Shown: positions 2,882 to 15,911, counted from the first letter of the stretch. The stretch is 64,000 nt of DNA from Gammaproteobacteria bacterium (GCA_029862045.1 JAOTYE010000009.1:39314-103313); one strand, 5' to 3'. The notes: generated by a model from the letters alone, not told the origin. Program-made: numbers and translations.

Positions 2882-2932
2882 GCGGGTGTAAGTTCAACCG
2901 TAGGATATCGTACCCTCAGTTTTACTCTCAGC
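2882..2932 (+). pseudogene. R0: degenerate tRNA-Gly 5' fragment joined directly to the terminal block of the R module (internally deleted copy)
   Basis: gcgggtgtaagttcaaccgtaggatatc aligns with nt 1-27 of the tRNA-Gly gene at 15838 (two 1-nt indels, few mismatches). The following taccctcagttttactctca aligns with the R1 end tatgctcagttttacgctca. Confidence 0.4.
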
Positions 2933-3030
2933 AATTCGACACAAGACCGTTTCGAGATACTATTGGCAGCCGACGAACACACTTTGGGCCGAAGAGGTGC
3001 GCCTGGATTCCAAAGTCAGGAGATGAGTGA

Positions 3031-3546
3031 GTGAAACTGTTCCGAACGAGAATGAAAAGCCATTGGAAGAAGAAGTATGCCAAAGGCTTTAAAGGACACG
3101 AACCTGATAGTGCCCAAGTCGAGGTCGAGCTGAAAAAGGCGCTCGTGCCGGGTACGGTTCTGGAGGTGGGTGCCGGTATTGGGTACTTCTCGGACCTAAT
3201 GCGGGAATGGGGATACGACGTAACTCAAACAGACTTGGTGATGGGCAACCAACTTGACATCACCCGCGAGGCGCGCGGCGAATTCGATAATGTCGTAGCA
3301 ATTGGTGTTATGCACCACATAATCGATCGCGATAAGTTTAACACCGGATTGGCAAATATTGCGGCGATGGCAAAGCAACGCGTAGTGCTTGGTGTAAAAC
3401 TGCCATCAGTGCGTTTCAAAACGAGAACGCGTCACTCGTACCGATATTCTGCAATGGACTACACGGATGTACTTGGTAGTCCGGTAAAGGTAACAGCGTG
3501 CGGTTACCTCAGCTTGCTCGAATGGGAAGTAGGCACCAGCGCATAA
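3031..3546 (+). CDS. class I SAM-dependent methyltransferase
   Basis: GTG 3031 lies 6 nt after AGGAG (alternative ATG 3052). Motif I is VLEVGAGIGYFS. The gene is visibly AT-richer than its flanks. Confidence 0.7.
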   Translation: MKLFRTRMKSHWKKKYAKGFKGHEPDSAQVEVELKKALVPGTVLEVGAGIGYFSDLMREWGYDVTQTDLVMGNQLDITREARGEFDNVVAIGVMHHIIDRDKFNTGLANIAAMAKQRVVLGVKLPSVRFKTRTRHSYRYSAMDYTDVLGSPVKVTACGYLSLLEWEVGTSA

Positions 3547-3675
3547 GGGCCGGGAGGGTCCAATTGCCGAGATCTTTGGCGGGCAGACGCGCCTTACCAA
3601 GCTGGGTCATCCAGGTCGACAATTCGGTCTTTAGGTTACAAACACATCCGCTATGGCGATCCAGCGCAAGACACC

Positions 3676-3946
3676 ATTCTCTTCTCCAATTGCCTCAGAA
3701 TCGCTTAGAATCGAATTACTCTCACTATTATGCTCATTGGGCTGTGGATGAGAGCTAACTCCCTGATAAGCGGGTGTAGTTCAACGGTAGAACATCAGCT
3801 TCCCAATCGGAGTCGCTGAGTTGGCCAGCTCTCTAACCGCTTCATTTCCGTGGTCCTGTGACCACCGGTTTCAACGAGTTAGATCACCCGAAAGTAATCA
3901 ACTGAGTCTCGTAGGCCTTCTGAGTATGCTCAGTTTTACGCTCACT
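3676..3946 (+). repeat. R1: tRNA-Gly upstream arm + tRNA 5' half + conserved ~140-nt non-tRNA tail
   Basis: 3676-3769 aligns with 15745-15837, the region upstream of the intact tRNA. 3770-3806 equals tRNA nt 1-37 with 1 mismatch. 3807-3946 aligns with 13963-14103 of R2. Internal hairpins are GTGGTC-CTGT-GACCAC (3850-3865) and CTGAG-TATG-CTCAG followed by TTTT (3920-3937). Confidence 0.85.
3770..3806 (+). pseudogene. tRNA-Gly(CCC) 5' half (acceptor 5' strand, D arm, anticodon stem 5' strand and loop); no T arm or 3' acceptor strand follows
   Basis: gcgggtgtagttcaacggtagaacatcagcttcccaa differs at one position from nt 1-37 of the intact gene at 15838. Confidence 0.85.
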
Positions 3947-4005
3947 ACTGAATCGGCTTCGTAGAAAATACGGCCGATGGTTTGTCCATACGCCGGCATT
4001 TTGCG

Positions 4006-5517
4006 TCAGAACCGCAGGTTGAGCGACGAAATAAACGCTTCCCTGGACCCAGTGAAACCATTGTATTCGGCGCTCCACGATAACCGTTTGCTGATGTCCC
4101 AGTTGAAGCCCGTGACGATGTTCCAGTGATCCGTGTTCTGCTCGTCGATTCGGTAATCGAGCGTCAGGCCTTCGAGAGCTGGAATCTCGTCTCCCGGAAA
4201 CGTAAAGGATCCGTCGATGGTGACGTCGGAGTCCAGGTAGTTGCCGCCCACGAACACCGCCATGCTGCCGAGGTTGCCCAGATCAAGAAGTCTGCCAATC
4301 CGCGGCGTCACGGTAAGTGAGGACCCGTCCGCGACCCTGTCCTTGGGCTCAGCATAGGTCGCCGTTGCGGGAATCGTTACGAACCAGCCTTTCCAGCCGC
4401 CGGCGAGTAGCGCACCGTAACCCCATGTTTCAACATCGACGTCTGCGCGCACTGGGAAAGAAATGATCTGGTTTTCGAGCGCATCGCAAAGCGGTGGGCG
4501 CACGAGTGGCCTCGAGCAGTCCGTGCCGCGTCGATCGAGTATCAGGTTGCCGTCGAGAAATACGTCGAGATCGACGGAGCCATCGACTTTGCCATACATA
4601 CCAAAAACATTGAGAAACGGAAACAGCCAGGCATCGACCTTCAACTGAAACGACCTGGTGTCGGAGTTTGAATTCTCGAAGGATACGAAGTCGAACCGTT
4701 CGAGGTCGCCGCCGTTGAACCCAACGGACAGGTCGGTAAGGTCCAGGTCCTGGTTGATATCCACATAGGTCACGCCGAGCCCAATGGGTAAGGGCAGGTC
4801 GTAGCCCTTGTCGACAACCTTCTGGCCGAGAAACGGTAGCGTCCGCGTCCAGACCCGCGGCGTATCCCTGCCCTGGCGATCGCTGCGTGGGCCGCCGATG
4901 TTCGGGATGCTTGCAGTCGATATGCCGGTATCTGTCAGTTCCGTGTTGACACTGACCCGCGCGAGCCGCAGGTTTGCCCCGAGTTCTGCTCCGGACTGTG
5001 ACCGCACCCTGACCGACATCTCGTCGCTGATCCACTGCGCGACGCCTTCGGCTTCTCCGGCAACCGACACGAGATCATAAGACGGTATCCAGCGATTCCT
5101 CTTGAAGCTTTTCACCGTGTCGACGTCATTAAGCACAGCCAGTAATTGCACCTCACTAGCGCCGACGCCCAGACCGAAAGCGAATTCGTCGATATTTACA
5201 AAAGTTCGCGTGTTGTCAGTGCGGTCATACAAGATTCCGGTGGTGTCCCCGCGGCCAATCAGGCCGATCAGGAGGTCTGTGCCTGTTGCGACGATGTAGC
5301 CGGGGGATGACTCGATCTCTCTTTCGACATCCGGGTCCTCAGCTTTGAACGCCGCTAGCGCTTCATTGGAAGCCGTTGTCACTTCCTGACGAACCTGTTC
5401 GCGCTCTTCTACCGGGATGCTGCTGCAGCCAGCCAGGCTGAAGACAGCGAGTACAGCTATTGCGCTGAGACACACGCGGTCTCGAATTATCCTGGCCGTC
5501 ACTATTGTTTGCTCCAT
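4006..5517 (-). CDS. hypothetical outer-membrane-associated lipoprotein
   Basis: 503-aa ORF with lipoprotein signal ...LAVFSLAGC|SS. The C-terminal half is rich in alternating beta-strand-like segments and ends ...SSLNLRF (aromatic terminal residue typical of OMPs). Transcribed divergently from the TetR gene. Confidence 0.7.
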   Translation of the reverse strand: MEQTIVTARIIRDRVCLSAIAVLAVFSLAGCSSIPVEEREQVRQEVTTASNEALAAFKAEDPDVEREIESSPGYIVATGTDLLIGLIGRGDTTGILYDRTDNTRTFVNIDEFAFGLGVGASEVQLLAVLNDVDTVKSFKRNRWIPSYDLVSVAGEAEGVAQWISDEMSVRVRSQSGAELGANLRLARVSVNTELTDTGISTASIPNIGGPRSDRQGRDTPRVWTRTLPFLGQKVVDKGYDLPLPIGLGVTYVDINQDLDLTDLSVGFNGGDLERFDFVSFENSNSDTRSFQLKVDAWLFPFLNVFGMYGKVDGSVDLDVFLDGNLILDRRGTDCSRPLVRPPLCDALENQIISFPVRADVDVETWGYGALLAGGWKGWFVTIPATATYAEPKDRVADGSSLTVTPRIGRLLDLGNLGSMAVFVGGNYLDSDVTIDGSFTFPGDEIPALEGLTLDYRIDEQNTDHWNIVTGFNWDISKRLSWSAEYNGFTGSREAFISSLNLRF

Positions 5518-5533
5518 TGCCTACCTTGACGCG

Positions 5534-5569
5534 GTGACATGGTGTCACTAGAGTGTGACGCAATGTCAC
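5534..5569. promoter_or_regulatory. two palindromic candidate TetR operators in the divergent promoter region
   Basis: GTGACAtggTGTCAC (5534-5548) and GTGACgcaatGTCAC (5555-5569) lie between the lipoprotein start (5517) and the TetR start (5539 or 5563). Confidence 0.5.
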
Positions 5570-6237
5570 CTAGTCGGTCAAACAAACGCCCGGTCATTCA
5601 GCCGGAGCCAATAGCCCGGATCGGCACGGCAGAGCGCACTCGTGCCGAAATACTGGATGCGGCGTTCGAGTTCCTGTGGTCTCGCCCGTTTCGGGACATG
5701 ACGGTGAACGTCCTGATGGCGATGATTCCGCAAGGCCGGACCGCCTTTTACAAGTATTTCGATGATATCCATGGGGTCATGGCGGAGATGCTGAAGAGAC
5801 TGGAGGCCGAGATTCTCGAAGGTGCCAGCGCATGGCTCTCAGACGACGGCGATCCGGTCGCCTTGTTATACAAAAGTCTCGCGGCCGAGGTTCAAATCGG
5901 CTATCGCTATGGGCCGTTCATCAAGGCTGTCAGCGATGCCGCGGGGACCAATGCAGAGGTGGAAGACGAGTGGAACTGGCTCCTGGATCGGTTTGACGAT
6001 GCCGTGAGCGAGCGTATTGCTGCGGACCAGGAACTCGGCTTGATCGAAGCCTTCGATCCCGGCCCGGTCGCGACCGCGCTAAATCGGGTCGATGCCGCTA
6101 TGTATATTCGGCAATTTGGACACAGGCCGCGCAGCCGGCCGCAGCCGGTGGTGGATGCAATCACGCGCGTCTGGATCTCCACGCTGTACGGTCAAAGGTG
6201 GGCGACGAGCCGCAGATCCACACTGGTTCGAGAGTAG
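5539..6237 (+). CDS. TetR/AcrR family transcriptional regulator
   Basis: N-terminal HTH region RTRAEILDAAFEFLWSRPFRDMTVNVLMAMIPQGRTAFYKYF. The start is ATG 5539 or ATG 5563. Confidence 0.85.
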   Translation: MVSLECDAMSPSRSNKRPVIQPEPIARIGTAERTRAEILDAAFEFLWSRPFRDMTVNVLMAMIPQGRTAFYKYFDDIHGVMAEMLKRLEAEILEGASAWLSDDGDPVALLYKSLAAEVQIGYRYGPFIKAVSDAAGTNAEVEDEWNWLLDRFDDAVSERIAADQELGLIEAFDPGPVATALNRVDAAMYIRQFGHRPRSRPQPVVDAITRVWISTLYGQRWATSRRSTLVRE

Positions 6238-6337
6238 GTACCGTATTCGCACCAGCCAGGGGGGCGGAACGGCAGTAGCGCAGGCAGTTTTGGGTCTCAC
6301 TACAAAAATGAAGAAACGATAAGGGGAGGAGCGAACA

Positions 6338-8284
6338 ATGACGGGAATGATCTACAGGCTAATAACGACCTCGGCTGTTCTGTGCCTTGCGGCGTCAACT
6401 TTCACCACGAGCGTAGCCGTCGCACAGACCCATGCCGGTCAGCCCGAGAGTGTGGTGGACCCGGTAAAGATCTACTCGCCGTACGTCGAGCGCACGGCCT
6501 TGGATTCGAATCTCGCTGAGGGTGTCTACTGGGGCGACACGCATTTGCATACATCGTACTCGACCGACGCCGGCATGATGGGCAACAAACTCGGTCCGGA
6601 AGAGGCTTATCGTTTCGCCCGAGGCGAGGAAGTCCTGACGTCACATGGGGAGCGGGTTCGCCTGATCCGTCCACTGGATTTCTTGGTTGTGGCGGATCAT
6701 GCCGAAAACCTTGGCCTGGCGCCTTTTATTGCGGAGTCGCACCCCGAGCTGTTAAAGAGCGAGTGGGGCAAGGCGGTTCACGACATGGTCAAGGCCGGCG
6801 ATTCCCGAGGCGCCTTCCAGAGATGGCTCAGCGACGCGGTCACCCCCGGGACGGACCCGATCAACAACCCGAAGATGGCCCGGACAGTATGGGACCGCGA
6901 GATCGAATTCGCTGACAAGTACAACGAACCCGGCCGCTTCACTGCGCTGATCGGGTTCGAGTGGACGTCCATCTCGACCCGCGAAAACCCGGGCAACCTG
7001 CACCGCGTGGTGATCTTCAAGGATGGCCGCGACAAGGCCTCGCAGGTAGTGCCGTTCTCCACGTTCGACTCCTACGACCCGGAGAAACTGTGGGACTACA
7101 TGGCGGACTACGAGGAGAAGACCGGCGGCAGCATGCTGGCGATTGCGCACAACGGCAACGTGTCCAATGGGCAGATGTTTGCCACCGAACGCCTGAATGG
7201 CCGACCGATCAAGCGGGAATATGCGGAGATGCGCGCCCGCTTCGAGCCACTGTACGAAGTGACGCAGATCAAGGGCGACGGTGAGGCGCACCCGTTCCTG
7301 TCACCGAACGATGAATTCGCTGACTACGGTACCTGGGACAAGTCCGACATCGTTGGCATGAATCCCAAGGAAGACTGGATGCTGAAGCATGAATACGCTC
7401 GCTCGGCGTTGCAGATCGGCATGCAACTCGAAGAAAAGCTGGGCGTCAATCCCTACAAATTCGGCATGATCGGTAGCACCGACGCCCACACGTCGTTGGC
7501 GACGACCCGCGAAGAAAATTTCTACGGCAAAGCAGCGCACCTCGAGCCCGAAGCGAACCGCTGGGAACATACAATTATTGCGTCTCTGTCCGGTAACCCG
7601 GAATTTTCCAGCTATTCCTACGAATCGATTGGCGCCGGTCTCGCGGCGGTCTGGGCGCGTGAGAACACGCGTGAAGGCATCTTCAATGCAATGATTCGGA
7701 AGGAAACCTACGCCACGACGGGTACCCGCATCGTCGTTCGGTTCTTCGGCGGCTGGGACTACGAGAACGACGAGGTATATCGTCCCGACGTGATATCCAT
7801 CGGTTATCGCAAGGGGGTGCCGATGGGCGGTGACCTGGCGGTAAGACCTGAGGGCAAGGCAGCGCCGACATTCATGGTGGGGGCACTGAAAGACTCGTGG
7901 TCCGGCAACCTGGATCGCATCCAGATCATCAAGGGTTGGATCGACAGCGACGGCGAGCGCCAGGAGCGCGTATACGATGTGGCTGTATCCGATGGTCGGA
8001 CCATTGACGCCGACGGCCGCTGCCGAACCCCGGTCGGCGATACCGTTGATGTGGCAGACGCAAGCTATCTCAACACGATCGGCGACGCGGAATTGCGCGC
8101 CGTCTGGACCGACCCGGACTTCAATCCCGAGCACCGGGCCTTTTACTACGCGCGAGTGCTGGAAATTCCAACGCCCACCTGGCAGGCCTATGACGCGAAG
8201 TTTTACGAGGTCGAGATGCCCGATACCGTAATGATGAAGGGCCAGGAGCGAGCCTACACGTCACCGATCTGGTACACGCCCTAG
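6338..8284 (+). CDS. DUF3604 domain-containing secreted protein (paralogue 1)
   Basis: RBS AGGGGAGGAG and a signal peptide. Motif [16 protein letters not shown] and C-terminus [12 protein letters not shown] are typical of DUF3604 as I recall it. Confidence 0.85.
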
Positions 8285-8310
8285 ACAACAACAAGAGCGA
8301 GGAGCGAATC

Positions 8311-10257
8311 ATGACTGGAACCAACTCGAGAGCGATAACGGCCCTGGCCGTCATGTGCCTGGCGTCTGCGTTTTTGCCAGGGAACGCGCGCGCACAAATC
8401 AACCCTGAGGTGACGGAAGAGGATGCCGCCAAGCTATACCCGGGGAAAACGTATTCTCCTTATGCACAGCGGGCGTTCCCCAGCAACGTTTACTGGGGCG
8501 AGACGCATCTGCATACGGGGTTGTCGCTAGACGCGGGCTTGTTCGGCAACACGCTGACACCCGATGACGCGTACCGATTCGCCCGTGGCGAGGAGGTCAA
8601 ATCGTCGACCGGCCTGCCCGTCAAGCTCGGCCGGCCGCTTGACTTTCTCGTTGTCGCCGATCATTCCGACGCAATGGGTCTCGCCCTCGACATCAAGAAG
8701 GGGACTCCGAATATCCTGGCAGATCCGACAGGCAAGCGTTGGCACGAGGCCTTCATGAAGGGCGGCCAGGAAGCGGGCAAGGCTGCGTTTGAACTGATCC
8801 AGGCATTTGCCCAGTTCAAACTGCCCGAGAAGATGGTGGCGGATTATTCGCCCGGATCCGCACCGTTTGCCACGGTGTGGGATACGATCGTCGACTCAGC
8901 GGAAAAATACAACGAACCCGGTCGATTTACGGCGTTCATCGGCTACGAGTGGACTGCGGTTCCCCAGGGTAACAACCTGCATCGAAACGTCATTCTCCGC
9001 GACGGTGGTGACCGGGCCCGGCAGATCCTGCCGTTGACCACACAGCCGCCGATCGGGACGACCGATCCGCTGGATCTGTACCATTGGCTCGAGAACTACG
9101 AATCGAAGACCGGTGGACAGGCTCTTGCTATCGCGCACAACGGTAACCTGTCGAACGGCTGGTTGTTCCCGATGGACAAGCGCTATTCGGGTGGCCGGGT
9201 CAACAAGGAGTATGTGGCGCTGCGAGCTGAGTGGGAGCCGCTTTACGAGGTTACGCAGATGAAGGGCGATGGGGAAACGCATCCGGCCCTTTCTCTTAAC
9301 GATGAATTCGCCGACTACGGTACCTGGGACAAGGGCAACCTCGACCTGTCGGCCCTGAAGAAGCCCGAGATGCTCGCGGGCGAATATGCCCGTGAGGCAC
9401 TGAAGAACGGCTTGGTGCTCGAAGAGAAGTTCGGCACGAATCCCTACAAGTTCGGCATGGTCGGTGCGACCGACAGTCACACGGCGCTGGCAACAGCAGA
9501 GGAAGAGAACTTCTTCAGCAAGTCCGTGAGCGTAGAACCGTCGCCGACCCGAATCGAGCATCCATTTATCAAGTCCGATCTCGCCGCTATCGAGGGAGAT
9601 GAAATCGTCGGTGCCGGCTACCAGGGCATCTGGGCGACCGAGAACACGCGCGAGGCGCTGTTCGATGCGATGGAGCGAAAGGAAACCTATGCGACGACCG
9701 GCCCACGCATGGTCGTGCGATTCTTCGGCGGCTGGGATTACACGGACGATGACCTGCGTAGCCGCGCGCCCGCATTCCGCGGCTATGAGAAAGGTGTGCC
9801 GATGGGCGGTGACCTGACGATGGCGCCTCAGGGAAAGGTGCCGACGTTCATGGTGTACGCGCTCCGCGATCCAATTGGCGCGAATCTTGATCGTATTCAG
9901 GTCGTCAAAGGCTGGGTCGACGATCGGGGTAAGACCCAGGAGAAGGTCTACGATGTTGCCTGGTCGGGTGACCGGAGTCCCGGCGCGGATGGCAAGCTGC
10001 CGGCTGTCGGCAATACGGTCGACATCGAGGCGGCCAACTGGACCAACACGATCGGCGCATCAGAGCTGGCAACGGTCTGGACCGATCCGGACTTCGATGC
10101 GGATCAGCGAGCGTTTTACTACGCGCGCGTGCTCGAAATCCCGACGCCACGCTGGGTGCTCTATGACAAGGTCCGCTTCGGCATCGAACTACCCGAACGT
10201 GCGGAATTGATTCACCAGGAGCGCGCCTACACGTCACCTATCTGGTACACGCCCTAG
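8311..10257 (+). CDS. DUF3604 domain-containing secreted protein (paralogue 2)
   Basis: Same length (648 aa) as the upstream gene. Motif [16 protein letters not shown] and an identical C-terminus [12 protein letters not shown]. The two are collinear over the full length. Confidence 0.85.
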
Positions 10258-10291
10258 GCAAGAAGCACATCATCAACGACGGAGAGGCGCA

Positions 10292-11734
10292 ATGGAGATT
10301 TTAAGAAGCTTGGCATTAACGCTGCTCCTCAGCGTTTTCGGCCAAGCGGCCCTGGCCCAGGACAAGCCGAACATCGTCCTGGTCTTCATGGACAACTTCG
10401 GCTGGGGCGAACCCGGGTTCAACGGCGGCGGCATCATTCGTGGCGCCGCGACACCGCAGATTGACTCACTGGCCGCCGAGGGGCTTCGGCTCACCAACTT
10501 CAACGTGGAGGTCCAGTGCACGCCGTCGCGCTCGACATTGATGACGGGCCGCTATGCGATCCGCAGCGGCAACGGCACGGTACCGCTGGGCGAAGGAGTT
10601 TATGGCCTCGTGCAGTGGGAAGTGACCATGGCGGAGATGCTCGCTGACGCCGGGTATGCCACCGGCATGTTCGGCAAGTGGCATCTCGGTCGCACGGAAG
10701 GCCGCTTCCCGACCGACCAGGGTTTCGACGAGTGGTACGGCATCCCCAACTCGACCGACGAATCGGTTTATTCAGAGTTGCAGGATTTCGCCGAAAGCGG
10801 TGTTGCGGAATCCTGGGTCATGGAAGGCAAGAAGGGCAGCGCGCCGAAAAAGGTACGTCCCTATCGGCTGGACTACCGGCCGCTGATCGATCGCGACCTG
10901 ACCGACAAAGCGATCAGCTTCATGCGCCGCCAGGCGAAGGCCGACAAGCCGTTCTTCGTTTACCTGCCGTACACGGCCACGCATTTTCCGGCGATCCCGC
11001 ACCCCGACTTCGACGGCAAATCCGGCAACGGGCCGTGGGGCGACATGCTGATGCAGATCGACAGCTACGTTGGCGAGTTGCTCGAGACGATCGATGACCT
11101 CGGGTTGGCAGACGACACGATCTTCATCTTCACGGCGGACAATGGCCCCGAGGCGCTGAGCGCCGGCGAAACATCGATGACCGTGGAAACGGCCCTGCAT
11201 GGTTCCGCCGGCCCGTGGCGCTCGACGCTGTTCACAGGGTATGAGGGCGCCCTTCGCGTACCGTTTGCCGTCCGGTGGCCCGATAAGATTGAAGCGGGTC
11301 GGGTGAGCGATGAGATCGTGCATGCGATGGACCTCTTCCCGACACTGGCCGGGATCGCTGGTGGCAAGGTGCCGTTGGACCGAGTCATCGACGGCATCGA
11401 CATGTCCGGTTTCTTCCTTGGTAAAACGCAGCAATCAGGCAGAGAGGGCTTCATCGTCTACATGGGTAATGACGTGTTTGGCGTGAAGTGGCGCGACTGG
11501 AAACTCCATTTCAAGGAGCAGACCGGGTGGAACGGCGTGCTGCGCGAGTACACGATGCCCCGCCTCTACAACCTGATCAACGATCCCCAGGAACGCGACA
11601 ACGTGCTTTTCCCACACACGTGGGTGCCGAAGGCGGCTTTGCCGCAGTTGCAGGAACACGTCCTTTCGCTCAGGAAGAATCCGCCGATCCCGAGCGGAGC
11701 GCCCGACCCCTACAAGCCGGCCGGAAAGAAGTGA
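10292..11734 (+). CDS. arylsulfatase (formylglycine-dependent sulfatase family)
   Basis: Signal peptide. Sulfatase signature CTPSRSTLMTGRY (C-x-P-x-R) follows NIVLVFMDNFGWGEPG. Confidence 0.9.
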   Translation: MEILRSLALTLLLSVFGQAALAQDKPNIVLVFMDNFGWGEPGFNGGGIIRGAATPQIDSLAAEGLRLTNFNVEVQCTPSRSTLMTGRYAIRSGNGTVPLGEGVYGLVQWEVTMAEMLADAGYATGMFGKWHLGRTEGRFPTDQGFDEWYGIPNSTDESVYSELQDFAESGVAESWVMEGKKGSAPKKVRPYRLDYRPLIDRDLTDKAISFMRRQAKADKPFFVYLPYTATHFPAIPHPDFDGKSGNGPWGDMLMQIDSYVGELLETIDDLGLADDTIFIFTADNGPEALSAGETSMTVETALHGSAGPWRSTLFTGYEGALRVPFAVRWPDKIEAGRVSDEIVHAMDLFPTLAGIAGGKVPLDRVIDGIDMSGFFLGKTQQSGREGFIVYMGNDVFGVKWRDWKLHFKEQTGWNGVLREYTMPRLYNLINDPQERDNVLFPHTWVPKAALPQLQEHVLSLRKNPPIPSGAPDPYKPAGKK

Positions 11735-11739
11735 ACGGG

Positions 11740-12690
11740 ATGCTGTTTCGGGCGTTCGCGCTCGCCGGCCTTTGCCTGCTGTTCCTGTACCCGCTGGCGG
11801 CTCAGGCGCAACTGTCCGGCCACAATACCCGGGGCGACTATGGACTCATGTCAGGTACGCAAGTGCCCGTGGGTACCTATGGGGTGGGAATGTACTATGA
11901 CTTCGCGGCCGACACGCTGCGCGATAGAAACGGGAACTCATTTCCGGCCATTTCCGACGGCGGCTCGGTGGACATACGGGCCGCTGTCGCGGGTCTGATA
12001 AAAACGACAGACAGAAAATTGTTCGGCGGCAACTACGGGTTTGGAATCTATGTCGCTGCGACCAACAATGCCGTGGAACTACCCGCTCTGCAAACCGACA
12101 CCGAGACCAGCACCGGCCTTGCGGACACCTACATTCAACCCCTGATACTTGGTTGGACAACGAAACGCGCTGATTTCATGGCTGGATTGGGGGTTTATGC
12201 GCCTACTGGGCGTTACGACCCCGATGCGGACGATAATCGCGGGCTGGGCATGTGGAGCTACGAGGCGTTCGCAGGAACGACGGTCTATTTCGACGAGGCA
12301 CGCACGTGGCACTTCGCGGGAACAGCGTTCTACGAAACCCATGGCAAGAAAGAAGACACGGACATTCGCGTCGGCGATATTCTTACCATCGAAGGAGGCT
12401 TCGGCAAATCGTTTATGGACGGTGCCGCAAGCGCCGGTCTGGCCTATTACGCGCAGTGGAAAGTCAGCAGGGACGACTTCGGCGTAACGCCGCCCGGTGG
12501 ACCTTTCCTTGGTAAACACGAGGTGTATGGTGTCGGTGCGGAACTCACGTTGCCTCTGGCCAGCAAGTCCAAGTTATACGGCTTTGCGAATCTTCGTTAC
12601 TTTTGGGAAACAGGGGTAAAAACCACGCTGGAGGGCGAGACCCTTCTGCTAACGCTAAGCTTTCCCTTCCCCAGCATTCCTCTGCAATGA
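11740..12690 (+). CDS. outer-membrane beta-barrel channel, MetA-pathway/'transporter' family-like (tentative)
   Basis: True start is ATG 11740 (MLFRAFALAGLCLLFLYPLAAQAQ signal peptide). The ORF-track start at 11488 overlaps the sulfatase gene in another frame. Alternating beta-strand pattern. Confidence 0.65.
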   Translation: MLFRAFALAGLCLLFLYPLAAQAQLSGHNTRGDYGLMSGTQVPVGTYGVGMYYDFAADTLRDRNGNSFPAISDGGSVDIRAAVAGLIKTTDRKLFGGNYGFGIYVAATNNAVELPALQTDTETSTGLADTYIQPLILGWTTKRADFMAGLGVYAPTGRYDPDADDNRGLGMWSYEAFAGTTVYFDEARTWHFAGTAFYETHGKKEDTDIRVGDILTIEGGFGKSFMDGAASAGLAYYAQWKVSRDDFGVTPPGGPFLGKHEVYGVGAELTLPLASKSKLYGFANLRYFWETGVKTTLEGETLLLTLSFPFPSIPLQ

Positions 12691-12771
12691 GGCAACTGTC
12701 GGCGGCCGAATGTTAAACGCAGAAAAGAAACATGCCGGCCTATTATCGAAACTTCCCCAGGAGGACCTGCA

Positions 12772-13080
12772 ATGAAATTCAAACAATGGCTGCTTGGTGC
12801 GGCACTATGCTCCGTATTCAGTTTTGCGGCGACCGCCGCAGATGCACCCGACAACGGACTGGCCGTACTTGGCTGGAGCGAAGCGACCCTCGTTGCGGAT
12901 CGAGATGACCGTAAGGACCGGCGGGACGAGCGTGGTCGCGCAGATGAACGCCAGGAGAAGCGCGACTGCCGCCAGGAAGAAGGCCGCGTCGGCAAAGACA
13001 AGCGCGAATGCAAGCAGGATGAGGTGCGCGACGGCGTCCGGGGCCAAAAAGATGACGACGACAAGGAAGAGGACGCCTAA
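12772..13080 (+). CDS. small secreted, extremely charged (D/E/R/K-rich) protein of unknown function
   Basis: Strong RBS CAGGAGG 7 nt upstream. Clear signal peptide MKFKQWLLGAALCSVFSFAATAADA. The mature part is a low-complexity charged sequence with two Cys. Confidence 0.55.
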   Translation: MKFKQWLLGAALCSVFSFAATAADAPDNGLAVLGWSEATLVADRDDRKDRRDERGRADERQEKRDCRQEEGRVGKDKRECKQDEVRDGVRGQKDDDDKEEDA

Positions 13081-13159
13081 AGCGGACCGGGAGTGGTGGA
13101 CGGCCGGCAGTCTCGCAAAAGGCTGTGGAAACACCAAAAGGGTCTCTTGAAGCAGCCAT

Positions 13160-13807
13160 ATGAAAGTTGAACAGAACAAGAATGCCGCTGCCCCTCTGAT
13201 AACCGGCGTCCTGGTTCTCGCCGTTTCATACGCTGTGCTCCGTTATCACGTCGTGGGACCGGTGCCGTGGAAGGACTTTCCGTTTTTCATCCTGAACAAG
13301 GGGTTTTCGCTCGCGGCGTTTGTCTTGATTGCATGCAATTTCGGCTTCGGCCCTCTGAGAAACATCGGAGTCCGTGTACCGGAGAGCTGGTTGGCCGCCC
13401 GCAAGGCCGTCGGTATGACCGGGTTTCTGCTGGTTCTTATTCACGCGCTGATGAGCTTCTTGCTGTTCAAACCGGCGGTATACGGCAACTTCTTTTCCCA
13501 GGACGGGACTTTGACCTTATTCGCCGGTCTGAGCATGCTCACAGGGGTCCTGGCGTTTGTGGTCCTCTGGGCCTACAACCTGAGTTTCCAGACATTCCTG
13601 CGCGAAGACAAAGCCTTCATTTCACTCATCACATCGCGCCGATTTCTGCTCGTCGCATTCATACTTGGCGGTGCCCACCTGTTGTTCATGGGCTACGAGG
13701 GTTGGATGAAGCCCGGGCGCTGGCACGGCGGACTGCCGCCTATCAGTCTGGTCGCTTTCGCTGTTTTCGCGATGGCCTACATCGTCAACCTGTTTGGCCG
13801 TGAATGA
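13160..13807 (+). CDS. integral membrane protein, ferric-reductase/YedZ(MsrQ)-like topology (tentative)
   Basis: 215 aa with about six hydrophobic helices. Conserved-looking His residues in LVLIHALMSF and GGAHLLFMG. Confidence 0.6.
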   Translation: MKVEQNKNAAAPLITGVLVLAVSYAVLRYHVVGPVPWKDFPFFILNKGFSLAAFVLIACNFGFGPLRNIGVRVPESWLAARKAVGMTGFLLVLIHALMSFLLFKPAVYGNFFSQDGTLTLFAGLSMLTGVLAFVVLWAYNLSFQTFLREDKAFISLITSRRFLLVAFILGGAHLLFMGYEGWMKPGRWHGGLPPISLVAFAVFAMAYIVNLFGRE

Positions 13808-13834
13808 TCGGCAAACTCTTGCCAACGCGACGAT

Positions 13835-14103
13835 CCCTTCTCCGTAGCCGAGAGATTGGTTTAGAATCCGAGTACTCTCACTTTTATGCTCAGCCAGACC
13901 TGAGTGAGACGTAACTCCCTGATATGCGGGTGTCGTTCAATGGTAGGACATCAGCTTCCCAATCGGAGTCGCTGAGTTGGGCGCTCGTATAACTGCTTGA
14001 TTATCGTGGTGCTGTGACCACCGGTTTCAACGAGTTAGATCACCCGAAAGTAACCAACTGAGTCCTGTGGACTTTCTGAGTATGCTCAGTTGTACGCTCA
14101 CTT
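13835..14103 (+). repeat. R2: second copy of the tRNA-Gly upstream arm + tRNA 5' half + conserved non-tRNA tail
   Basis: 13861-13925 aligns with the region upstream of the intact tRNA. 13926-13962 equals tRNA nt 1-37 with 3 mismatches. 13963-14103 aligns block-wise with the R1 tail, including a 59-nt block with only 2 differences. Confidence 0.85.
13926..13962 (+). pseudogene. tRNA-Gly(CCC) 5' half, second truncated copy
   Basis: gcgggtgtcgttcaatggtaggacatcagcttcccaa. The D stem is still pairable (one G-U). No T arm or 3' acceptor strand follows. Confidence 0.85.
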
Positions 14104-14193
14104 CTTGGATGGTCGATGACGAGACGCTTCGCGAATGATCAGCACCCACACGAGCACGAACGCAGCCAATGGGATAATGACAAACCATTCCAT
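14098..14193 (-). CDS. possible 31-aa hydrophobic peptide (below the ORF-track cutoff)
   Basis: ATG 14193 lies 1 nt after the stop of the 75-aa ORF (TGAcATG). Product MEWFVIIPLAAFVLVWVLIIREASRHRPSKK is one TM helix with a basic tail. Its stop lies inside the right end of R2. Confidence 0.25.
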   Translation of the reverse strand: MEWFVIIPLAAFVLVWVLIIREASRHRPSKK

Positions 14194-14194
14194 G

Positions 14195-14422
14195 TCAGTT
14201 TTCCTCGAGATCGTCAATGAGACGATACGCAATGCGGTTAATTTGGAAGATACCGCTGGTGACTACTATAGCAGCAACGCCGGCAGCAGCGACGAGGATC
14301 GGGTTTGCTTTGGTGTAAGACTGCGCCAGCCAACCAAGCAAGGATGCATCGATCACAGCGAGAAGGCCGAACGGAACTTTCAACCATCCGATTTCTTCCT
14401 TGATTCTGTTGACTCTCGCCAT
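14195..14422 (-). CDS. small two-TM membrane protein, unknown function
   Basis: 75-aa ORF with two hydrophobic segments, in an AT-richer stretch. No recognisable motif. Confidence 0.45.
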   Translation of the reverse strand: MARVNRIKEEIGWLKVPFGLLAVIDASLLGWLAQSYTKANPILVAAAGVAAIVVTSGIFQINRIAYRLIDDLEEN

Positions 14423-14512
14423 GTCACAGTACCCGCTGCCTGCCTTCCTTCATTTTTGATGGATTGAACACGGGCGTCTATGTCGATTTGCGGTCAATTC
14501 CTTCCGATTCCC

Positions 14513-15706
14513 TCAGTTCAGCAGGTCAACACGGCCTGATTTGAGCCAGTCCGACTGCTCCGTTCTCTCGCTGCGATCAGGCGGTCCTGCCGGTTGAGGA
14601 GGCGCGGCAGGCCATGCCTCATCGGTGCCGATGACCCTTCGTACACGAATACCGTCTGCGTTGACGTTCCAGACCAACAGGTCGTCCGCGAGGGTTAACG
14701 GTCCATCATAGGTCTTGCGAATCTCTTCGAGGGTGCCCGGTGCGACATTGAAGTCGGCGAAGTTGTGGTAAGCAATCGCCATGCGAGGCTGCAGTCGCGA
14801 GAAGATCTTGCCGCATGACGACGGCGGTGTGTGAAGTACCGTCGAGACAATTCGGGCTCGCTCAGGATCATATTTTTTCAGGTCAATGAGTTGCTGCACC
14901 GTGAAATAGCATTCGTGAATCAGCAGATCGGCATCGCCGGATTCAGCAAGAAACCACTTGTTGGGGACAGTATCCCCTGAGTAAACGAACTTCTTGCCAT
15001 TCCACTCCAGGCTGTAGCTGACGGCCCCGTCGATCGTATGCACGGCAGGCCACGCCTTGATCTTTACGCCATTCTGTTCATAGATGACGTGGCTCTTGCG
15101 GTAGTCAAACTCCGTCACTTCTATGTGGCCGCCCGCCGACGGCATGTTGCCTCTGCGGCCTGTCAGGTCCCAGGTGAACATCTCACGCATACGGTCGATG
15201 GCGTATTTCGTCCCGGTCTCCGGTTTAAGGCCACTAGGACCCCAGACCCGCAGTGGCCCAGTCCGGTTCGAGACCCAGCCGCCTATGAACATGGCATCCA
15301 GATCGCCGATATGGTCGACGTGCAAATGACTGATGAATATCTTGTCCAGGTAGGTGTAAGGAATTTCCAGCGCTCCGAGATTCGCAAGCGACCCGGTGCC
15401 GATATCGAAAAGGAACTTATCCCCGTTATCCAACTCGACCAGCCACGATGCAGATGCCTGCGAGCGGCGAAAGTTCGGTGTACCTGTTCCCAATGCAATC
15501 ACACGCATCTCGTCCGAACCGAGTGGTTCGGTATTCGGGAAATAATTGTCCCTCGAAGCTGTCTCTTCCTCCGCAGCCATCGCAGCATCGACGGCTGCGG
15601 ACATCACCGTCTTTGGCATGTCGCCGATGCCGGAGATAGCGACCGCCAATGCGCTGATTAGCACGATCACGGGTATTGTCGTTCTTAGTGAAGGAGTGAC
15701 TCTCAT
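14513..15706 (-). CDS. MBL-fold metallo-hydrolase, exported
   Basis: N-terminal signal/anchor. Metallo-beta-lactamase motif SHLHVDHIGD (HxHxDH). RNase Z-like N-terminal block RVIALGTGTP. Confidence 0.85.
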   Translation of the reverse strand: MRVTPSLRTTIPVIVLISALAVAISGIGDMPKTVMSAAVDAAMAAEEETASRDNYFPNTEPLGSDEMRVIALGTGTPNFRRSQASASWLVELDNGDKFLFDIGTGSLANLGALEIPYTYLDKIFISHLHVDHIGDLDAMFIGGWVSNRTGPLRVWGPSGLKPETGTKYAIDRMREMFTWDLTGRRGNMPSAGGHIEVTEFDYRKSHVIYEQNGVKIKAWPAVHTIDGAVSYSLEWNGKKFVYSGDTVPNKWFLAESGDADLLIHECYFTVQQLIDLKKYDPERARIVSTVLHTPPSSCGKIFSRLQPRMAIAYHNFADFNVAPGTLEEIRKTYDGPLTLADDLLVWNVNADGIRVRRVIGTDEAWPAAPPQPAGPPDRSERTEQSDWLKSGRVDLLN

Positions 15707-15744
15707 CTTTCTTCCTCAGGGGGAGGGTGCTCTCGCACAGCCCA

Positions 15745-15837
15745 ATCTCTTCTCCAATCGGCTCAGAATAGCTTAGAATCCGAGTACTCTCACTTTTATG
15801 CTCAGCCAAGCCCAAGTGAGACGTAACCCCCTGATTT
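15745..15837 (+). repeat. R3: upstream arm shared with R1 and R2, here joined to the intact tRNA-Gly gene
   Basis: aatctcttctccaatcggctcagaatagcttagaatccgagtactctcacttttatgctcagcc... aligns with 3676-3769 and 13835-13925. Confidence 0.8.
15773..15799 (+). promoter_or_regulatory. promoter-like hexamers upstream of tRNA-Gly (also present in R1 and R2)
   Basis: TTAGAA, 15 nt, TTTTAT (TATTAT in R1). The spacing is suboptimal, so this is only a candidate. Confidence 0.3.
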
Positions 15838-15911
15838 GCGGGTGTAGTTCAATGGTAGAACATCAGCTTCCCAAGCTGAGAATGAGGGTTCGATTCCCTT
15901 CACCCGCTCCA
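15838..15911 (+). tRNA. tRNA-Gly (anticodon CCC), CCA encoded
   Basis: 74 nt. Acceptor stem GCGGGUG/CACCCGC, D stem GUUC/GAAC, anticodon stem UCAGC/GCUGA with loop UUCCCAA, T arm GAGGG-UUCGAUU-CCCUU, discriminator U then CCA. Confidence 0.95.

Follow-up and report, generated by a model that had tools for sequence, protein, structure and literature searches.

A lineage-wide, integrase-less cassette array on the 5' side of tRNA-Gly(CCC) in sediment Gammaproteobacteria

How do unrelated groups of genes come to be stacked in front of a single tRNA gene, with no recombinase encoded among them? This question is raised by a 64,000-nucleotide stretch of DNA, hereafter the window, from a Gammaproteobacteria bacterium (GCA_029862045.1 JAOTYE010000009.1:39314-103313), a marine-sediment, Woeseiaceae-like organism. 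Woeseiaceae are abundant marine-sediment bacteria. Between positions 2,882 and 15,911, three cargo blocks are separated by copies of a repeated junction, R, which consists of an upstream (P) arm, the 5' half of a tRNA-Gly gene and a tail. Together they make up a genuine cassette array, lineage-wide and without an integrase, that is anchored 5' of tRNA-Gly(CCC) and for which we propose a mechanism that is plausible but unproven. Judged from the sequences, the array probably, if by no means certainly, consists of small non-autonomous integrative cassettes that are anchored at this tRNA gene and moved in trans.

The sole tRNA of the window is a tRNA-Gly(CCC) at 15838-15911 on the + strand (ARAGORN; Rfam, 73.8 bits). 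Its opening 15-16 nt are repeated on the same strand at 2882, 3770 and 13926, and the pattern GCGGGTGTN{1,2}GTTCAA gave four matches, at these three positions and at 15838, all on the + strand (0.00 expected from shuffles). A first-pass annotation of the window had described four co-oriented copies of the tRNA 5' end, the last intact, with three cargo blocks between them. The copies were recovered exactly where it had placed them, and the gene content of the blocks matched our Pfam and open reading frame (ORF) results. The features of the array are as follows:

2882..2909, + strand: tRNA-Gly 5' relic of ~28 nt with a single inserted base and without upstream arm, left edge of the array; pattern match, 0 by chance
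2910..2930, + strand: double 8-mer of the tail-end type, fused to the relic; repeat family and motif search
2931..3696, + strand: block 1, with a class I S-adenosylmethionine-dependent methyltransferase (3031-3546), GC 0.52; Pfam/ORF
3697..3769, + strand: upstream (P) arm of R1, with a doublet at 3717-3736; repeat comparison
3770..3806, + strand: displaced tRNA-Gly 5' half, copy 1 (position 1 to the end of the anticodon loop); Rfam tRNA match of 22.9 bits over 3770-3841, sub-threshold
3807..3949, + strand: R1 tail, the left arm of block 2, with a hypervariable ~13 nt, hairpin GTGGTCCTGTGACCAC, an invariant 24-mer and a doublet at 3925-3944
3950..13852, strand not assigned: block 2, 9.9 kb; variants with 81-92% identity lie behind tails in L068 and L024
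13853..13925, + strand: upstream (P) arm of R2, with a doublet at 13873-13892; repeat comparison
13926..13962, + strand: displaced tRNA-Gly 5' half, copy 2; pattern match
13963..14105, + strand: R2 tail, the left arm of block 3, with a doublet at 14081-14100; repeat comparison
14106..15764, strand not assigned: block 3, 1.66 kb; ORFs and family matches
15765..15837, + strand: upstream (P) arm before the functional tRNA, with a doublet at 15785-15804, the presumed promoter region; no consensus sigma-70 promoter called
15838..15911, + strand: intact tRNA-Gly(CCC), right-hand anchor of the array; ARAGORN, Rfam 73.8 bits

R1 (3697-3949) and R2 (13853-14105) were 83-85% identical across 253 nt, and both were 81-89% identical to the upstream arm and tRNA 5' half at 15765-15880. 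In both of these full copies (~253 nt), the upstream arm measures 73 nt, the 5' half 37 nt and the tail 143 nt. Their likeness to the tRNA stops past the anticodon loop (...CTTCCCAA), where the conserved 143-nt tail begins. The size and layout agreed with those of the attP-like unit that the first-pass annotation had seen in the junctions, attP being ~250 bp in the Islander survey (PMC4383910).

The 64 kb contain six copies of a doublet, TAYNCTCA-N4-TAYNCTCA, always on the + strand and in junctions only (0.00 expected by chance). The doublet lies before each 5' half (3717, 13873 and 15785), at the tail ends (3925 and 14081) and right after the relic (2911), and is thus present in both arms, as arm-type binding sites would be. 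The relic at 2882 matches the tRNA-Gly 5' end at 23 of 27 bases, with one inserted base, and is joined straight to its doublet. No further copies of R were found in the 64-kb window. Rfam searches of the window region and nine related loci returned tRNA only, plus the sub-threshold tRNA match at R1, and sigma-70 and terminator scans gave no calls in arms or tails. Three simple identities of the junction were discarded: a miniature inverted-repeat transposable element or other transposon because the ends are direct, not inverted, repeats, a tRNA intron because a 3' half is missing after the tail, and split tRNA halves because there is no complementary 3' half gene.

The same junction was found well beyond the window. 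An exact 24-mer of the tail retrieved 67 sediment-metagenome contigs, and a tail 21-mer retrieved 15 loci in metagenome-assembled genomes labelled as Woeseiaceae, Chromatiales and uncultured Gammaproteobacteria, plus one Gemmatimonadota-labelled bin that may be mis-binned. We have built a nucleotide profile of R from 36 non-redundant units and run it on the related loci (numbered L0xx below). It gave 163 hits, at most four per contig and in one orientation per contig in every contig. Wherever an intact tRNA-Gly(CCC) was on the contig (L006, L051, L055, L058, L085 and the window locus), it stood to the right of the tails and on the same strand. Relatives carry the same junction with other blocks. 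In total, 33 distinct blocks were complete, running from a full tail at the left end to an arm at the right (0.66-9.9 kb, median 2.4 kb). The recurrence of this geometry in more than 80 related loci supported the first-pass view of a true co-oriented array that ends at an intact tRNA.

To which block each part of a junction belongs was apparent from contigs sharing one flank. In 12 contig pairs with 98-100% identical right flanks and unrelated left flanks, the identity of the tails was 0.94-1.00 (0.75 in one pair), and that of the upstream arms was only 0.52-0.89. Hence, each junction joins the ends of two blocks: the arm plus 5' half closes the preceding block on its right, and the tail opens the following block on its left. 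A 2.07-kb block (96% identity) common to L012/L057/L053 and L023 has different neighbours on either side; on the right it ends with the final base of the anticodon loop, and on the left it begins within the 5' half of the preceding junction. On these alignments, the exchange point falls within the tRNA-derived 37 nt. Functional tRNA genes of different genomes are preceded by different arm variants that match the adjacent block, which is consistent with the arm having come in with the latest block. The first-pass annotation had proposed that each incomer supplies a promoter and 5' half with a crossover at the anticodon loop. The arm/tail linkage and the switch within 37 nt support the arrival of a new arm and 5' half. 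The remainder stays conditional: the upstream arm would be the tRNA promoter, although the sigma-70 scan called none there, and a site-specific crossover would look the same in these data as homologous exchange.

Conservation followed the same boundaries. Mean column identity across the 36 units rose from 0.40-0.49 in the flanks to 0.75 in the arm and to 0.97 in the 5' half, and along the tail it was 0.84-0.96. The unit edges were sharp, with a fall to background directly after ...CTCTCAC. The exception within the tail is a hypervariable stretch of ~13 nt (mean column identity 0.72), located ~19-31 nt past the anticodon loop (window 3825-3837 and 13981-13993) between highly conserved segments. 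What, then, is conserved? R could be a gene or a regulatory module, either a tRNA-promoter-driven chimeric small RNA (the 5' half plus the 143-nt tail, ending in CTGAG-TATG-CTCAG-TTTT) or a promoter cassette for the downstream block. An upstream region followed by the 5' half, a conserved body and a short hairpin with a T run, right where conservation ends, would suit such a module, as would 13 hypervariable nucleotides inside a conserved scaffold. Yet RNAalifold gave only -4.9 kcal/mol for 58 distinct tails, with almost no structure and no compensatory pairs, and Rfam yielded nothing beyond the sub-threshold tRNA match, so that the conserved fold with covariation expected of a structured RNA gene was not seen in R. 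The terminator scan made no call at the hairpin, the downstream genes lie on either strand, and an RNA gene leaves the arm-block linkage and the strict co-orientation with the tRNA unexplained. We therefore regard this explanation as highly improbable. Given the lack of consensus fold and covariation in the tails, the constraint is most simply one at the DNA level, like that on the protein-binding arms of an attachment (att) site.

How could such an array be built? For cassettes moved in trans, we infer a circular intermediate, a site-specific crossover, a promoter function of the arm and a trans-acting enzyme. Each cassette would end in the ~143-nt tail on its left and in the ~75-nt arm plus the first 37 nt of the tRNA on its right, and in the circular form these ends would join as one ~255-bp attP-like site. 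Campbell-type insertion of the circle would take place at an anticodon stem-loop, either in the resident tRNA gene or in a junction already present. The functional tRNA would thereby receive a new front, made of the arm and 5' half of the incomer, and the older arm and 5' half would be shifted to the left, attached to the tail of the incomer. Repeated insertion would produce an array in which a P-core-P' site is re-formed wherever two cassettes meet, the enzyme being supplied in trans by a source other than the cassettes, which would not encode one. A more far-reaching proposal, which we regard as possible but doubtful, is that Woeseiaceae and related sediment Gammaproteobacteria maintain a dedicated, integron-like capture platform. 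The anticodon stem-loop of tRNA-Gly(CCC) would be its acceptor and the split 255-bp sequence its site, and a chromosomal recombinase would insert and excise cassettes of one to few genes, each replacing the promoter and 5' half of the tRNA.

An enzyme acting on R was sought in the window and in the related loci. Pfam scans covered the window ORFs of 0-20 kb and 27-64 kb, and six-frame phmmer/hmmsearch searches covered the whole window, the queries being XerD, three integrases found in the loci, gamma-delta resolvase and rve transposases. For the related loci, ~30 of 134 protein cluster representatives were searched with Pfam, and the rest together with six-frame ORFs by phmmer/hmmsearch with few recombinase queries. 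No match to recombinase, transposase, relaxase or phage families was obtained in the window by either approach, in agreement with the first-pass statement that the 64 kb hold no integrase, transposase, relaxase or phage gene; the ORFs of 27-64 kb had ordinary chromosomal functions by Pfam (cytochrome oxidase, peptidases, transporters, sigma factor). All R-bearing contigs together contained only four tyrosine-recombinase-like genes and two insertion sequence (IS) transposases. Words from the tail and core of R had no match in IMG/VR viral contigs, and no autonomous element with the att specificity of R was found there or among the R-bearing contigs.

Two sets of integrases were considered as the cognate enzyme and rejected. 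The two integrases of L009, one of 404 aa, adjoin a piece of a different tRNA, its 3' part, on the opposite strand and hence belong to an ordinary island. The integrase of 208-221 aa in L016 and L049 drew notice because it lies directly upstream of variant (class C) junctions, described below. It is a tyrosine recombinase (PF00589 only) in a 0.9-1.4-kb unit (L016:2420-3284 and L049:122-1482, tail on the + strand) flanked by 37-48-nt inverted repeats (GGGTCATT... / ...AATGACCC), and the gene has opposite orientations in the two contigs. Its homologues number more than 7,900 at E<1e-40, nearly all on 1-4-kb contigs, and other copies have no R nearby. It is a separate, multicopy element, suggestive of an IS-like or invertible unit in Woeseiaceae.

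The array could also be fixed debris, left by autonomous, integrase-bearing tRNA islands that inserted serially and then lost the integrase and most other genes. Such decay is the usual source of partial-tRNA arrays (Islander tandems, PMC4383910; degenerate elements in tycheposon islands, 10.1101/2020.12.28.424599), and truncated junctions (class D and the relic), toxin-antitoxin (TA)-like gene pairs and IS elements within some arrays would fit it. However, no integrase gene or fragment linked to R was found among the 33 complete blocks and ~160 junctions, both arms are kept at 75-96% identity beside unrelated DNA, and identical blocks with differing neighbours indicate that blocks are still moving or have recently moved. 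Moreover, given their range of 0.66-9.9 kb and median of 2.4 kb, many blocks are too small for decayed islands. We thus consider decay clearly unlikely, and the suggestion of the first-pass annotation that the blocks might be decayed found little support, with a median block of 2.4 kb and arms conserved like the tRNA half.

Some junctions depart from the standard form. Class B junctions are a normal R with a ~105-nt insertion at one fixed D-loop position of the displaced 5' half (L005:431-526, L044, L047, L050, L065, L069, L012, L038, L055 and L057). The insertion, which runs GAGCC...CCAC between GTTCAATGG and TGGTAAGAC, duplicates TGG, is conserved over many contigs and lacks terminal inverted repeats. 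In class C, a non-tRNA arm of 75-130 nt is joined to the segment from the D-loop to the anticodon, which suggests insertion at internal junctions as well as at the tRNA. Class D consists of the last ~90 nt of the tail alone, from hairpin GTGGTCCTGTGACCAC on. The variant junctions show decay and secondary events inside the arrays. In contig L028, a class C junction and a weakly matching tRNA are accompanied by a c-di-GMP-I-GGC riboswitch (974-1078 in original coordinates; 66 bits, above the gathering score).

We have also compared the edges of the array with related genomes. Orthologues of the TonB receptor on its left (77, 73 and 61% identity; L090, L091 and L095) keep the upstream gene for a tetratricopeptide repeat (TPR)-sulfotransferase. 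Downstream, ~77 nt on, they are followed by short-chain dehydrogenase/reductase (SDR), alcohol dehydrogenase (ADH) and GcvT genes, which are absent from the window, and by no tRNA. The alignment of the TonB 3' intergenic region (2811-2881 in the window) to these relatives holds until ~2876, just short of the relic. An empty state with the TonB receptor followed directly by tRNA-Gly and the sulfotransferase, as the first-pass annotation had envisaged for relatives, was therefore not what these orthologues revealed, and no relatives came up when genome contigs were searched with the sulfotransferase. On the right, the array is flanked by chromosomal backbone, with a racemase-PALP synteny downstream of tRNA-Gly shared with L006; the genes separating the tRNA from this pair differ between L006 and the window. 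The loci L055:9313-9383, L058:6593-6663 and L006:3959-4032 share their last block, arm and tRNA 5' part, and L055 and L058 have an imperfect, replaced tRNA 3' end (GGTTCAATTGCCCTCACCGGTC) and a right flank unlike that of L006. Hence, the 3' side of tRNA-Gly is variable too. The sole circular-contig candidate, L064, was set aside: its 24-nt terminal repeat lies in the conserved arm, and it is best seen as a repeat-bounded assembly unit.

Several observations weigh against mobile cassettes moved in trans. Searches of the window and of the related loci, by Pfam on part of the proteins and phmmer/hmmsearch on the rest, yielded no cognate recombinase. Neither circular forms nor empty sites were seen in the related contigs, and the comparison across loci gave no clean presence/absence polymorphism of whole blocks, only one internal indel. 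Since relatives run from the TonB gene into the SDR, ADH and GcvT genes without a tRNA, the left edge of the array is a synteny break and not an ancestral attB. Classes B, C and D are not foreseen by a simple cassette model. The crossover can be placed no more finely than the invariant ~37-55 nt, and RecA-mediated exchange in the most conserved stretch predicts an identical linkage pattern. Finally, the same right block is preceded by differing hypervariable tail segments in L009, L016, L017 and L059, which suggests some exchange or conversion within the tail.

Could homologous recombination alone account for the array? R would then be a repeat of ~255 bp that arose a single time from the tRNA-Gly region. 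RecA crossover in the near-identical 5' half and proximal tail would loop out and re-insert blocks or swap them following DNA uptake, with no dedicated recombinase today. The failure to find a recombinase, a switch point in the longest and most identical stretch and the blocks preceded by tails of differing hypervariable segment, as conversion gives, all speak for this possibility. It leaves unexplained, however, the original joining of the tail to the anticodon loop, the conservation of the distal tail and doublets far above the flanks and the survival, at independent sites, of a solitary tail end of ~90 nt that always starts at one left limit. In addition, the anticodon stem-loop is a classical core of tyrosine integrases (PMC4383910). 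We consider homologous recombination alone to be unlikely, and integrative cassettes moved in trans remain our preferred explanation.

What do the blocks carry? Block 2 encodes a 503-aa lipoprotein (4006-5517, minus strand), a TetR regulator (5539-6237), two DUF3604 proteins (6338-8284 and 8311-10257), a sulfatase (10292-11734), a MetA-type outer-membrane protein (ORF 11488-12690, the start being probably ~11740), small ORFs and a 215-aa protein (13160-13807). The 503-aa ORF, a lipoprotein by its sequence, is the largest family-less ORF within the array, and several window ORFs had no Pfam or NCBIfam family match. The tandem DUF3604 paralogues are ~72-78% identical at the DNA level in stretches. 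Shorter versions of block 2, with one DUF3604 copy and without the lipoprotein gene, are present in L068 and L024; since these differ from the version in the window, blocks evolve through internal duplication and indels.

Block 3 contains two membrane ORFs of 31 and 75 aa (minus strand, ~14110-14440) and a metallo-beta-lactamase (MBL)-fold hydrolase (14513-15706, minus strand). The hydrolase matched NCBIfam NF041257 (GntH, guanitoxin biosynthesis hydrolase) with 439 bits against a cut-off of 333, and no other guanitoxin-pathway genes were found near it. The 75-aa ORF (MARV.RIKEEIGWLKVPFGLLAV...) and the 31-aa ORF also lie directly after the tail in L005, L022, L037, L007, L066 and L026, with 83-89% DNA identity. 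Different cargo follows the pair in different arrays, and it may be the backbone module of one cassette subfamily.

Across the related arrays, the recurring cargo comprises sulfatases, DUF3604 proteins, TetR and AraC regulators, TPR proteins and TonB receptors, with amidohydrolases and porins assigned by eye only. The TA-like small gene pairs occur in the arrays of L015, L029, L038, L042 and L076, frequently beside truncated junctions; they consist of an ORF of ~93 aa and one of ~86 aa, the latter with an XRE-type helix-turn-helix by eye, and recall the TA cassettes that stabilise chromosomal integrons.

The cargo as a whole (sulfatases, DUF3604 proteins, amidohydrolases, porins, TonB receptors and regulators) is of the kinds that tune substrate use. 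If cassettes do move via one tRNA-anchored site with an enzyme in trans, nature would have a second cassette-capture design beside the integron, and cells would tolerate repeated replacement of a tRNA promoter and 5' half. The long, recognisable junction would let metagenomes be mined directly for cassettes, and the enzyme, once found, would provide a recombinase and att pair of defined specificity. If homologous recombination maintains the arrays, they are still a clear case of a repeat-organised hypervariable locus.

Which known system does the array resemble most? The duplication of the 5' part of the tRNA, which the first-pass annotation had taken as a departure from the norm of tRNA-targeting islands, is uncommon but has precedents, since 159 of 3919 islands in the Islander survey have a displaced 5' fragment ahead of the tRNA (Hudson, Lau and Williams 2015, PMC4383910). 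As in that class, an intact tRNA gene stands at one end here with co-oriented 5' fragments upstream, crossover would be at the anticodon stem-loop, the attP-like site is of similar length and arrays are tandem; in the survey, attP was anticodon-centred in 2083 islands and ~250 bp long. The islands differ from the present units in carrying a tyrosine integrase, which was found in no unit here. They also span 2-200 kb, candidates below 2 kb or without integrase having been rejected, while the units here are mostly below 3 kb (0.77, 9.9 and 1.66 kb in the window, family median 2.4 kb). Tandems of at least three were seen in only 4 of 3919 islands (PMC4383910); the window has at least three units, and the whole P-core-P' junction is conserved across the lineage.

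The tRNA-proximal tycheposon islands of Prochlorococcus grow as elements integrate one after another and displace earlier arrivals inward (Hackl et al., bioRxiv 10.1101/2020.12.28.424599). Like them, the present array is additive at a specific tRNA, has partial tRNAs between its modules and carries niche-adaptive cargo, and most of those islands are integrase-free at a given time. In contrast, tycheposons have their own large tyrosine recombinase, none being seen here, and the long conserved arms of each module are particular to the present array.

Integron arrays are alike in their small, co-oriented, integrase-less cassettes, in the conserved repeat resembling a recombination site, in insertion at one end, in the TA-like cassettes and in an enzyme that would act in trans. 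An integron itself was rejected, as no intI, attI or attC was found and the 64 kb contain no tyrosine recombinase. The 58 tails have no consensus fold, neither an imperfect palindrome nor a site folding as a single strand in the manner of attC is present, the junction is a 255-bp, tRNA-derived direct repeat, and the cassettes are often multi-gene, with their own regulators and genes on either strand.

The cis-mobilizable elements (CIMEs) of the Streptococcus thermophilus ICESt1/ICESt3 system have att sites at their ends but no genes for recombination or transfer, and they lie in tandem; presumably the integrase of a related element moves them in trans, and their target is the 3' end of fda. 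The present cassettes likewise are bounded by att-like sites, were found to have no recombination or transfer genes and lie in tandem at one site. They differ in that no cognate autonomous element was found, in that the target is the 5' side of a tRNA, and in being far smaller, more numerous and more diverse. IMEX, integrative elements that exploit XerCD at dif, share the lack of an integrase, the use of a host recombinase that we propose here and the tandem arrays at one chromosomal site, whereas the core of R is a tRNA anticodon stem-loop with no likeness to dif by eye. Altogether, the array is a CIME-like variant of tRNA-targeted integrative elements with an integron-like organisation.

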